From NCBI GenBank assembly GCA_951406725.2, contig OX597826.1:12028001-12092000 (forward strand): a DNA stretch of 64,000 bases, in the 5' to 3' direction. A model generated the notes under the pieces. It saw nothing but the letters and a program-made list of their open reading frames with translations. It had not been told where the DNA came from and ran no database searches. Below are positions 3,635-62,268 of this stretch, piece after piece. Position numbers and translations under genes: made by a program. The DNA comes from Octopus vulgaris (taxonomy: Eukaryota). The stretch's first letter is position 1. Every line of letters starts with the position of its first letter.

Positions 3635-3774
3635 ATTGCAGCTTGAAATAAAAGAATACTGTAATGACGATTACTACGGTTCAACATGCGATGTCCATTG
3701 TATAGAACGAGATGATGACGATGGCGGCCATTATACATGTGATAAACATTCAGGAAAGAAAATCTGTAATCCAG
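3635..3774 (+). CDS. Exon A of Delta/DSL-EGF Notch-ligand-like gene (most of the DSL domain); upstream exons not identified in window
   Basis: ttag|A...CCAG|gtaagc. Translates LQLEIKEYCNDDYYGSTCDVHCIERDDDDGGHYTCDKHSGKKICNP(G), matching the DSL pattern C..YYG..C...C..RDD..GHYTC...G.K.C..GW.G..C. Phase-1 donor. Confidence 0.92.
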
Positions 3775-4226
3775 GTAAGCGAGAGAGAAAAAGAAGGGTA
3801 AGAGTGAGAGAGAGAGAGAGAGAGAGAGAGAAAGAAAGAAAGAAAGAATGAAAGAGAGAAGATGTGAGCTAGTAGTAGAATTCAATAACTATTCAAATTT
3901 CATTATCTATTCTGTATTCAATTTAGTTTTCATTCAGTAACAAAGAATCCTTATTGAACATTTTTATACATGTTGTTTAATTTATATATCATAATCTATG
4001 TGTTTCTGATAAAAATTGATGACTCCCGTTGAGTGATAGAGATATTCCTTCGTGATATCATTCAATAATAAATCCAGTTTCGGTTTACGGGAGAAACAGT
4101 TACATTTTAACCAGGTCGTTAATGATCAATTTGAAGACAAATTTATCACACTATCCATAAATCTTGATATCTAACAGTTATATGATAAAACGATATGTGC
4201 ATTGTGAACCTGGGTAATGAATATGA

Positions 4227-4375
4227 TCCGCCGAGGTCGACTTTGCCTTTCATCCTTTCGGGGTCGATAAATTAAGTACCAGTTACGCACTGGGGTCGAG
4301 GTAATCGACTTAATCCGTTTGTCTGTCCTTGTTTGTCCTCTTTATGTTTAGCCCCTTGTGGGTAGTAAAGAAACA
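4227..4375 (+). mobile_element. SINE family B fragment
   Basis: CCGCCGAGGTCGACTTTGCCTTTCATCCTTTCGGGGTCGATAAATTAAGTACC core. Confidence 0.9.
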
Positions 4376-5394
4376 GAATATGATGACATGCATATTTTTT
4401 CTTAATACTTTTCGGTAGATTAGAACGTGAATAACCTAATCGGTTTTCAGAAATCAGAAGACAATACAAATCATTTGTTTACTAAATCCTATGAACAAAG
4501 CCAAAGACTCTTGTTAAATTCATCAACCCGCTTTCGATTTGGTCTAGGAGTCACACAACAAGGTCGAAACACTAGTGTATCCTTAACCTAACGAAGAGAG
4601 TGAGTCATGAATACATAGTCGTCAAAAAAAGAGTTAAAAAGTTGTTAGATAATGACGAAATACAACAGCGATGAGCATACCCGGGTTCGAATCTATCTAA
4701 CGTATAAGGAATGAAATTCTGCCATCGGAGCATCTATCCGATATATCTTAAAGTTATAAGATACGCCCTATATCATGAATATAGAAATTCGACTTCAAAA
4801 TCCGTGTTGTTTAAATACACTACCCTTAAAACATATGCTATTCATTTTATATAGCAATTTTATGCTAGTGTCTACGTTACCATCATCAAATGAATTGTAT
4901 ATCCTACTTTAGCCGCTATGATAGAATTATATCATTTTGTGTAATGTTTTGACAGCTGTACTACAATAGCTGTCATACAATTTAGATTTATCTTTCTAGA
5001 CAATCGTAATGACAGGATATGTAGCGATATTTTCGTATGAGGAATTGGTTATTTAGTATGACTAGAAATGTGTGAACTTCATATAATTCATAGTAAGTGT
5101 GAACTTGGCAATGTAAACAAAATGACTCCGTTTAAGATAAAATAACGCATATTTCTCGACGATGAACAACCGCACGTTTTATTAGTACATATGGCAAAAC
5201 GGTAAACCTACACTGCGATATGGAAATGGTAGCTAATGGCCTCGAGAAATGGTTGGAGCTAGCAGTATCGTTTAACGTTGGCTGAAATATAGGAATTTAC
5301 TATGGATTATTGTATGCATATGTATCTCGTCCCATACTTTCAGGATTATCGACTGAATAGCATAACTCATGTTAAAAGTTAGCATACATAGCAT

Positions 5395-5760
5395 AGGCGT
5401 AGGAGTGGCTGTGTGGTAAGTAGGTTGTTTACCAACCACACGGTTCTGGGTTCAGTCCCACTGCGTAGCACCTTGGGCAAGTGTCTTCTACTATAGCCTC
5501 GGGCCGACCAAAGCCTTGTGAGTGGATTTGGTAGGCGGAAACTGAAAGAAGCCCGTCGTATATATGTATATATATGTATATGTATGTGTGTGCATATGTT
5601 TGTCTGCGTTTGTCCCCCCAACATCGCTTGACAACCGACGCAAGAGACCGATAGAATAAGTACTAGGCTTACAAAGAATGAGTCCTGGGGTTGATTTGCT
5701 CGACTAAAGGCGGTGCTCCAGCATGACCACAGTCAAATGACTGAAACAAGTAAAAGTTAA
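5395..5760 (+). mobile_element. tRNA-derived SINE family A with internal microsatellite
   Basis: A-box TGGCTGTGTGGTAAG, B-box GGTTCAGTCCC, tail GACTGAAACAAGTAAAAG. Confidence 0.92.
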
Positions 5761-59089: not shown

Positions 59090-59267
59090 GCTACATGCAG
59101 TGTAGGAAATGACTCTTCTTTGTTTATCTGCGAATGTATAGAAGGCTACACTGGTAGATTTTGTGAAACTTCTATAGACAACTGCCAACAAAACAACTGC
59201 CTTAACGGTGCAACCTGCATTGACCTACAAAGCGGTTATGACTGTCAATGTGCTCCTGGTTTTACTG
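59090..59267 (+). CDS. Exon D of DSL-EGF gene (rest of EGF3, EGF4)
   Basis: ctaaccag|GCT...ACTG|gtaagt, phase 0-1. ATCSVGNDSSLFICECIEGYTGRFCETSIDNCQQNNCLNGATCIDLQSGYDCQCAPGFT(G). Confidence 0.93.
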
Positions 59268-59939
59268 GTAAGTAAAACTCTTCCATGAATGGCTTAATTA
59301 ATTAATTAGTTTATTATTAATATTATTACCAGAAGTCAGACTATTGTTATCAGAATGTAATAATAATATATATAGAAGTTAGCTTTACATAAAACGCATT
59401 CATATATTCTCATGTAATCCACAATTGTACATTCTTAAACTGAATCATATAATCTGAAACGCATCTCTTCAAAAGATTCTATGGTAATGATATATATATA
59501 TATATATATTGTTTTACCTTCTAGTAAACTATATAGTTAATATCGGATCTTATACATATGGAACCTAATAAACTCGAAGTTTAGTATACTTTCAAAAGAC
59601 GAGCAAAGATTTACATAACCCAGATATTTCAAATTTGTATGCTTAGTACAGTCTTGAAGATAGTCAAAACAAAAAAAAAAACATATCAAAAGCAAAACAA
59701 TAAGAAATACTAGCTCTGATGCATAGAGTTTAAATATGGATGTCATATCAGTTAAAGATCAATTGCTAAATACATGATTTCTTTGAAATTGCATTCTCTT
59801 CATTCTCTTCAAAGCTTATGTTTTAGAATAAGTTATGGTGACTACAGACGTTATAGCAAACTAATTTAATAAAGTAAAATGCAATAGATTCAAAATTTGT
59901 GTCATAGTTTCGAATTTTGACCTCAGACCAGAAACCTCG

Positions 59940-60120
59940 GAGGAGGAGTCAGTCGATTACATCGACCCCAGTACTCAACAGGTGCATATCTTATCGATCC
60001 TGAAAGTATGAAAGACAAAGTCGACTTTGGCGGAATTTAGAATCAGGATATAAAGACAGATGAAATACTGCTAAGCAATTTGTCCGGCGTTCTAACGGTT
60101 CTGCCAGCTCGCCGACTTCT
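59940..60120 (-). mobile_element. SINE family B, diverged
   Basis: Reverse-complement core and head. Confidence 0.8.
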
Positions 60121-60223
60121 GGTAGAGTAATATGTTGAAGATAATGTATATATAATAACCTTTTTTGATTGTATAAACTTAAATAAAATATATTCTCAGC
60201 TATGTAGTATTAATTAATTCTAG

Positions 60224-62268
60224 GTTCGAGATGTGAAGTCGATGTTAATGAATGTAGCAGCGACCCGTGTTTACATGGTGGCATTTGTTACGACAGAGTG
60301 AATAGCTTTAGATGTGATTGCCCGAAGGAAACCAGTGGAGAAATGTGTGAAGATAATTATCTCTTATCATCAACTAGCGTTACTACTGAACGTGTCAGTA
60401 GTCATCAATATACAGTCAAATCTAATTCCTCTGACGTAATATCTACAGAAAAGCAATCTGTAGATATATTTATCCCAACAAGTACAAATACCAGCATTTT
60501 AAAAATATACACTACAGAAAGCACCCAGTTAAACGTAACGCAAGAATTAAATCAAAGTGGGACAATTGAATATGGATTAACCACCAATTCTTCTGATTTT
60601 TTTCTTGATAAAAGTAACGCCACCTTAACTACAGTATCGTCAGAATCTCATACGGTTAAATATAACTCGAAGGATATCACTTCAGCGACAGAAGACTTGC
60701 TTTTGGCAACTATCAATGCTTCAAATCCACAAACTGTTGAACCGTTTTATGTGCCTGTCACCGTAGTCACAGAGAAACCCATAGTGGTTACTGATTGTTT
60801 GGTTATCAAAACATTCCGATCCAATAAACTAAACCAGATACTCTCACAAAATCAAAAATACACTGTTTGTTGGTGGGTATATGATTCCATCTTGCCACCC
60901 ATGTCTAACCCTGGTACAAGATATACTGAAAACCAGAACGAAGCGTATGTTTGGTTTGAAGACACTATGAACGATTTATTGCCTTTTACTTCAAAATCGA
61001 CTGCAGTAAATATAAACAGAAACGAAATATTGTCATATTTAAAGAATAGTTTACAAATAATTGATAACAGCTCTGAAGATAAACTTCCACACAATTTAGT
61101 TGATACACCATGTATTCAAATTTGGATGAAAGCAAAACGGAGAGGTTACGGGTATTTGAACACAAAACGGGGAGATCCAAATGTTGAATATAAAAGCAAA
61201 TTGAATGTTAAACGAAGATTCCTATCATCTAAGATGCTTTACTGCAAACAAAACTATAACTTGGCTGTTACAACAGATACAAAAGGCTTGCAGAATGAAA
61301 CGAAACAAGCATCAATATTGTCACAGTCAACGTCTATGGAGAACGAAACTACGAACGTATCGACATTACCACAGTCAACATTATTGACGAACAAAACCAG
61401 ATACATAACAACATTACCTCAATCGACGTTATTGACGAATCGCTCCACACGCTTGCCAGCATTATTAGAACCAACTTCATTGAAAACGAAAACCATGCGT
61501 ATATTAACAATATCGCAACCGGCGTTACAGATAAACGAAACAATTATTATGCCAACAATATCAGAAAGAATTTCGCTGAATAACAAGAGCTCACAAGTAT
61601 CGAAACTGCTACAAACAACGTCAGGGATTAACAAAACAATACACATGACAAGACATGCTGTTTCCACCTCACCAAAAGAAACGACCACTGTCGGAGTAAG
61701 ACGGTTTCACTTACTTCTGAGGAAACTTAACAGAACTCATTACCAGGAGCGCTTTTCATCAATCATAAACAGAGATGGCAACAAACCAAAAATGGTGTTG
61801 ACCGTTCTTCGGACAGCCAAGAGAATCTACCAGGTTGGATCTGACTCAGCTCGTAAAGTTTACAGAAAAACAAAACTTCTTCTGCATATGACATTAAAGC
61901 AACTCTCTACAATTTGGATTTCCGTAAAAACTTTTGCAGTTCAACCGATCTCTAAAACTCAGGAAACTATTAGACAGACATGGTTAAAGGTTAATAAAGC
62001 ATTCACTAAAACTCGCCAATTATTACAAGATGCTTATATGTTGGCACGGAATAACTTCAAAAATATTTATCAACGAATGAAGGAAAACACTTCAAATCTG
62101 TCAAGAGACAGCTATCAGAAATATTACAATTATTACAACAGCTATAGCAGAAAAATTAACAAAGTATCGGGATATTTTTCGAATATGTATAAAAATTATA
62201 CAAATAATTTGCAGAAATATTGGGAGAAATTTAATAAATATGGCAACGTTAATAACAAACGCCGTTGA
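60224..62268 (+). CDS. Terminal exon E of DSL-EGF gene: EGF5 + long Ser/Thr-rich, repeat-containing, basic C-terminal region
   Basis: ttctag|GT TCG AGA TGT..., phase 1. [42 protein letters not shown], continuing as the 656-aa ORF to TGA at 62266-62268. Confidence 0.88.

Follow-up and report, generated by a model that had tools for sequence, protein, structure and literature searches.

A DSL protein of Octopus vulgaris with mucin-like stalks, a conserved amphipathic tail and no transmembrane helix

In the Notch pathway the ligand is pulled, via its intracellular domain, by the endocytic machinery of the sending cell. The pulling-force model of Notch activation is stated in bioRxiv 2022.11.22.517517. 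Among molluscs, the transmembrane domain of Delta2 has reportedly been lost by early termination (He et al., 2021; PMC8166818), and lophotrochozoan Delta-like genes of unclear origin have been noted (PMC5356439). The gene described here lies in a 64,000-nucleotide stretch of the 2.8-Gb Octopus vulgaris genome (C13:12028001-12092000, contig OX597826.1; 'the window') and extends upstream of it. It encodes a protein with the C2 and DSL domains of a Notch ligand followed by EGFs, mucin-like stalks and a basic tail, with neither a DOS EGF pair nor a transmembrane helix, and it represents a variant of the DSL proteins that is real and conserved and, apparently, undescribed.

Four further exons upstream of the window (C13:11981486, 12010405, 12013798 and 12019558) were located by mapping an O. 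sinensis protein to 280 kb of DNA on that side. The nine exons, with GT-AG at every junction, give a protein of 1,054 residues, 1,032 of which are identical to O. sinensis XP_029644226.1. The order of the parts is signal peptide, C2, DSL, five ordinary EGFs, mucin, middle domain, mucin and basic tail, and the plan is identical in the orthologues of O. bimaculoides (XP_014785782.1) and Argonauta. An earlier note on this DNA had joined the five exons of the window (A-E) in one open frame; the chain is borne out by AG/GT ends at all five exons and a product ending ...GNVNNKRR, as is its account of a DSL domain and five EGFs followed by about 640 residues (five canonical EGFs directly after DSL, then 638 residues). 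The features of the window are as follows.

3635..3774, plus strand: exon 5 (A), end of C2 and the DSL domain (splice ends, PF01414, face residues H/I/R/D/G)
42415..42537, plus strand: exon 6 (B), last DSL cysteine and canonical EGF1 with an O-fucose site (splice ends)
51402..51571, plus strand: exon 7 (C), EGF2 and the first half of EGF3 (splice ends, contigs)
59090..59267, plus strand: exon 8 (D), second half of EGF3 and EGF4 (splice ends, contigs)
60224..62268, plus strand: exon 9 (E), coding as far as the TGA stop; contigs continue into the 3' untranslated region
60224..60351, plus strand: EGF5 with an O-glucose site
60352..60768, plus strand: mucin-like stalk 1, 33% Ser+Thr, fast-evolving
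60769..61278, plus strand: middle domain, about 170 residues with conserved Cys and Trp, common to both paralogs
61279..61689, plus strand: mucin-like stalk 2, 33% Ser+Thr
61771..62238, plus strand: conserved tail module, two predicted long helices, amphipathic with a period of 3.65, basic and Tyr-rich

The glycosylation motifs had also been read correctly: EGF1, 3 and 4 have O-fucose sites, and EGF3 and 5 have O-glucose sites; because these are common motifs of EGF repeats, they are no pointer to Notch. Exon B (42415-42537) is symmetric (123 nt) and is skipped in one O. bimaculoides model, which joins DSL to EGF2 and drops the last DSL cysteine. The public O. vulgaris annotation has two models in place of the gene, one with C2 alone and the other, called Notch homolog 2, with EGFs and tail; it omits the DSL exon (A), and the ends of its models are drawn from intron (window 33658-33708 and C13:12019825-12019941). 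The present gene model corrects this annotation, in which half of a split gene is labelled Notch2.

Contigs from four of the 24 listed sequencing runs were compared with window positions 58900-62330. None of the runs is recorded as RNA; they were taken as RNA because of a spliced joint and an uncovered intron. The D-E splice is present in contigs of two of the four runs, C is joined ahead of D with a loose end in one run, and the stop codon of exon E is crossed by contigs in three. No run has a joint inside exon E of the kind that would mark an exit to a transmembrane exon (0/4). The A-B junction is supported by the annotated models of three species and by the protein of a 4.9-kb contig with an identical junction. 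This contig encodes a full-length family protein of 1,126 residues (P0071, from a cluster of 16) and is probably spliced RNA from a non-octopod, likely decapodiform, cephalopod; a search of shorter proteins gave no spliced A-B record from octopus.

It is very improbable that the gene makes an ordinary membrane Delta of which the form without a transmembrane helix is only a minor isoform or a mis-modelled one. Such an error might be expected where rare variants are lost, as they are in contigs, where a junction such as A-B comes from gene models and one contig protein rather than from reads, and where the O. vulgaris annotation itself divides the gene and skips an exon. Against this stand the contigs that read through the stop with no joint inside exon E, and the end without a transmembrane helix that is shared by annotated proteins of three other species and by full-length P0071. 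The tail is, moreover, strongly conserved: octopod identities are 92% and 70% for the tail, compared with 87%/67% for C2 and 93%/66% for DSL, and the stalks fall to 23-24% in Argonauta. Since the tail is conserved as much as the head, it is not intron read-through. A tblastn search of the 61.7 kb downstream with the transmembrane and intracellular parts of four ligands found no matching exon, although a diverged exon would escape such a search. A mis-modelled membrane Delta can thus be regarded as largely refuted.

The protein also departs from Delta and Jagged in the region after DSL. A profile built from 42 DOS-bearing ligands recovers the DOS exons at three canonical ligand loci of the genome (E-values of 1e-16 to 2e-5; at one of the three only the first short DOS exon lies within the stretch examined), the names Delta and Jagged for these loci being assigned in this analysis. 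The family proteins score at most 12 bits on a DOS profile, compared with 95-119 in two controls, and the published DOS consensus is absent. A search of the 38.6-kb intron between A and B with the 42-ligand profile found no hidden DOS exon, the best E-value being 6.

The absence of a transmembrane helix, another claim of the earlier note, likewise stands. The best 19-residue Kyte-Doolittle window of the octopus protein is 1.5 and includes E and K, compared with 2.98-3.95 in three transmembrane control ligands; across 13 family proteins the top hydrophobic window past the signal region is 0.7-1.5. An N-terminal hydrophobic stretch is encoded by the upstream exons 1-2, with an 11-residue hydrophobicity of 2.7-2.9 in four full-length orthologues, and the signal peptide is judged from this hydrophobicity. 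The suggestion that the protein is secreted or peripherally tethered is supported by this stretch, by the lack of a transmembrane helix and by the amphipathic basic tail as a candidate tether.

The head of the protein is recognizably that of a Notch ligand. The C2/MNNL family PF07657 matches the Argonauta protein (E-value of 4e-17) and the O. vulgaris N-terminal model (7e-12), as well as an upstream exon; PF01414 (DSL) is above its cut-off at exon A and reaches 7e-11 in P0008. The best solved relative is DLL1 (4xbm, E-value of 5e-69). The aspartates of an acidic loop that aligns with the β5-6 region of DLL1 are kept in all four orthologues aligned; the β5-6 loop of JAG1 binds calcium and lipid (PMC3888931). 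In a C2-DSL tree of 23 rows, from several of which the start of C2 is missing and which covers DSL proteins other than those of nematodes, the six family rows group together (94/92, just short of the starred mark) and fall outside Delta plus Jagged (98/95), near P0039 and sponge Delta on long branches.

The Notch-binding face is less well preserved. In JAG1 it consists of F199, R201, R203, D205 and F207 (PMC3415683), and the F207A substitution abolishes binding to Notch, down to background (PMC3888931). The corresponding residues in the window protein are H/I/R/D/G; its loop is one residue longer, and position 207 is non-hydrophobic in either register. Across eight family rows, neither R201 nor a hydrophobic residue at 207 is kept in any, R203 is kept in five and D205 in six, R203 being lost in Argonauta and in the paralog. 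The face is intact in all three canonical ligands of the genome, and a hydrophobic residue at 207 occurs in 41 of 42 DOS-bearing ligands, a control set that is mostly fish Jagged, which limits the face test. The earlier proposal of a Notch ligand or antagonist is weakened by this face and by the loss of F207, and, to judge from these sequences, the link to Notch would be weaker than had been supposed.

The tail is the most distinctive part of the protein. The last 150 residues or so form a conserved module with an 11-residue (3.65) amphipathic periodicity, a net charge of up to +27 and many tyrosines. In the second helix the hydrophobicity peaks at a period of 3.62-3.70 in all 12 members tested, in each case above all 300 shuffles, and the summed power is 159 at a period of 3.67 versus 12 at 3.5; the periodicity of the first helix is weaker (p of 0.003-0.09). 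Eleven of the 12 carry a net charge between +14 and +27, and a Trp, a Pro and several Tyr residues are invariant in the alignment. No Pfam family reaches its cut-off in this region. Foldseek gave no match at an E-value of 0.001 or below for the AlphaFold model of the tail or for that of the middle domain plus tail (mean predicted local distance difference test score, pLDDT, of 40), and a wide structure search found generic long helices only (Z of at most 8.0), by which the middle domain was hardly probed. The ESM Atlas gave no usable match for the middle domain or the tail, a result that says nothing on absence or novelty. A further candidate, in which the middle domain is the Jagged juxtamembrane domain, found no support in hhalign (probability of 0.2%). 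The tail is a new conserved domain and marks otherwise anonymous mollusc mucins.

When a profile built on three sequences and covering the middle domain and tail was run against 1.84 billion representative proteins, 14 had an E-value of 0.001 or below. Eight of these have E-values below 1e-30; they represent both types of paralog and come from octopods, Sepia pharaonis and further records. The remaining six match in the tail alone (7e-9 to 3e-4) and come from Batillaria, Gigantopelta, Littorina, Lymnaea and two others; EGFs were found by Pfam in both of the two that were scanned, and the available sequence of the six, several of which look partial, contains no C2 or DSL. Source records label relatives as mucin-like. 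The idea that the protein is cephalopod-specific thus fails for the tail, with which mucin-like proteins from four named gastropods likewise end; the complete C2-DSL-EGF-mucin-tail protein was observed in named cephalopods and one further record only. In the relatives P0075 and P0077, repeats rich in Asn/Gly/Tyr and in Pro/Arg/Gly, like those of structural secretions, come after the tail module.

A search of the genome with the tail gave at least two places, the window gene and a head-to-head paralog about 50 kb upstream:

C13:11,822,077-11,931,209, minus strand: paralog with C2 exons, DSL, one EGF and mucin

The last frame of the paralog is 2,087 codons long and comprises a long mucin (about 1,700 residues, with long internal repeats) followed by the middle domain and tail common to both genes; its fourth exon was not found. 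The Argonauta orthologues have consecutive accessions, which suggests that the gene pair is conserved.

How such a protein might act can be approached from its parts, and the account that we tentatively put first is of a Delta-derived mucin that is secreted and tethered to surfaces without activating Notch. The N-terminal hydrophobicity suggests that the protein is secreted, and the basic 11-residue-periodic tail, by analogy with 3-11 helices, may grip lipid or other anionic surfaces. The C2 head would probably also hold surfaces, the kept acidic β5-6 loop pointing to calcium and lipid binding, and the stalks are presumably O-glycosylated. The whole would then act as a long surface-tethered mucin with little or no Notch activation and at most a weak effect on Notch, the likely setting being a cell coat or mucus layer in which it spaces or links surfaces. 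Having no intracellular domain, it cannot be pulled by the endocytic machinery of the sending cell. Several observations weigh against this account. All six DSL cysteines are kept, R203 and D205 remain in the window protein and DSL identity among orthologues is 41-93%; so conserved a domain suggests that the head still binds something, possibly Notch. The faces of sponge Delta (F/V/H/N/D) and priapulid Delta (L/H/R/D/A) are also off-pattern. In the tail, the AlphaFold model of two long helices is of modest confidence (mean pLDDT of 58.6), the lipid-binding Pfam matches are far under cut-off (Apo-CII, E-value of 0.03; TPD52, 0.06) and the net charge of one gastropod tail is just +5. An 11-residue period equally suits right-handed coiled coils.

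The conserved head leads to the nearest competing account, the antagonist of the earlier note: a secreted dampener of Notch, in which C2-DSL binds Notch weakly while the tail concentrates the protein on surfaces, where, being unable to pull, it would compete with Delta and Jagged. C2 and DSL are intact, and R203 and D205 are retained in most family rows. A low affinity could be offset by tail tethering, and according to a published model competition from overexpressed DSL-only ligands may inhibit Notch (PMC2504490). This is plausible in outline and nonetheless somewhat unlikely, given that F207 and R201 are lost, that JAG1 F207A binds at background (PMC3888931) and that Argonauta and the paralog are without R203 too. 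The same surface binding could instead make the protein a long-range activator, loaded by its tail on vesicles, lipoprotein-like particles or matrix and acting multivalently, perhaps with a DOS-only partner as in Caenorhabditis elegans. In that nematode, DSL ligands without DOS work alongside DOS proteins (PMC2504490). Multivalent soluble Jag1 can activate Notch without pulling force (bioRxiv 2022.11.22.517517), and in its sequence pattern the tail resembles a binder of lipid surfaces; with an eroded DSL face in a genome that has three DOS-bearing ligands of intact face, we consider activation distinctly improbable.

If the tail is read as a coiled coil, the protein becomes a structural component of matrix or mucus, the tail self-assembling as a right-handed coiled coil or binding sulfated polysaccharide instead of lipid and the head being a passenger or a protein-protein hook. 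The 11-residue periodicity, the two long predicted helices and the Gly/Asn/Tyr-rich extensions after the module in gastropod relatives are consistent with such a role, whereas the strongly positive net charge would disfavour plain self-association, and we judge it quite improbable. A broader and unlikely scenario is that molluscs evolved the tail as a lipid-surface binder with which cephalopods replaced a Notch ligand's transmembrane anchor, the head, on a mucin arm, then modulating Notch at a distance from membranes, vesicles or lipoprotein-like particles; no description of such a way of presenting a DSL protein was found in the literature searched. Membrane anchoring and pulling are the defining properties of Notch ligands, and here the anchor is exchanged for an undescribed amphipathic module while the ligand head is kept in two paralogs across octopods and cuttlefish-grade cephalopods. 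This would mean either that a signalling head has been reused in a protein of the mucus or cell coat, or that Notch in cephalopods is regulated by a soluble protein riding on surfaces.

Other elements were observed in the window and the genome. A tandem array at C9:59.83-60.07 Mb has at least seven matches to DSL and five to C2/MNNL; the Notch faces are divergent and the EGFs numerous. At C11:67,278,945 there is another divergent DSL, with downstream EGFs, and at C3:101,695,650 a separate C2/MNNL match. The intron between exons C and D contains, on the minus strand, a broken element of the long interspersed nuclear element (LINE) type with endonuclease and reverse transcriptase matches (window 53535-56408). 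An inverted repeat with 115-nt arms, 99% complementary and 186 nt apart, lies about 400 nt before exon C (window 50580-50694/50881-50995). In intron 1, two long plus-strand frames resemble a reverse transcriptase and endonuclease element (C13:12,000,728-12,004,050), and a short high-copy repeat in the D-E intron (window 59935-60110) draws many short contigs in all four runs.

The literature covered mostly excludes subscription papers; within it, topic searches found no paper describing the octopus gene, and six accessions of these genes appear in no main text searched. The architecture is not mentioned in the available portions of PMC10970066 and PMC6368272. The tree of 138 DSL genes in PMC8166818 may include the octopus gene. 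A jagged-1-like, MUC2-similar protein, which may belong to the family of the octopus protein, is reported from snail mucus (PMC10475054).

Among described DSL proteins, LAG-2, APX-1 and the secreted DSL-1 of C. elegans resemble the octopus protein in having DSL without DOS and a secreted member (PMC2504490, PMC3415683), a likeness of architecture only. DSL-1 differs in having one EGF (PMC3415683), and a mucin-plus-tail plan is not mentioned in the available text of these two papers. Mollusc Delta2 is likewise a molluscan Delta-type protein without a transmembrane domain (PMC8166818), whereas the C-terminus of the octopus gene is not truncated but replaced by 638 residues. Identity with Delta2 was rejected, the O. 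bimaculoides Deltas there being XP_014769856.1 and XP_014771450.1 and the orthologue here XP_014785782.1. The DOS-less Delta-like P0039 shares C2, DSL and a directly following canonical EGF, with very similar local sequence; it differs in having a transmembrane helix and an intracellular part and no tail module, and its place in the tree, on a long branch, is unsure.

For the tail, the nearest parallel is with the 3-11 helices associated with apolipoproteins, synucleins and perilipins, which bind lipid (PMC6164224). Both have a long helix of about 3.67 residues per turn, whose hydrophobic face is segregated. The octopus tail is far more basic and Tyr-rich and is placed C-terminally on a secreted mucin; sequence and fold matches are not significant, and the resemblance is one of analogy. 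Compared with Jagged/Serrate, the octopus protein has five EGFs rather than 16, and VWC is absent by Pfam. With the canonical Delta/Serrate ligands as a whole it shares the signal peptide, C2 (MNNL), DSL and tandem EGFs; unlike them it has an eroded face and is without the DOS EGF pair, the transmembrane helix and the intracellular domain, their place being taken by the mucin stalks, the middle domain and the amphipathic tail.

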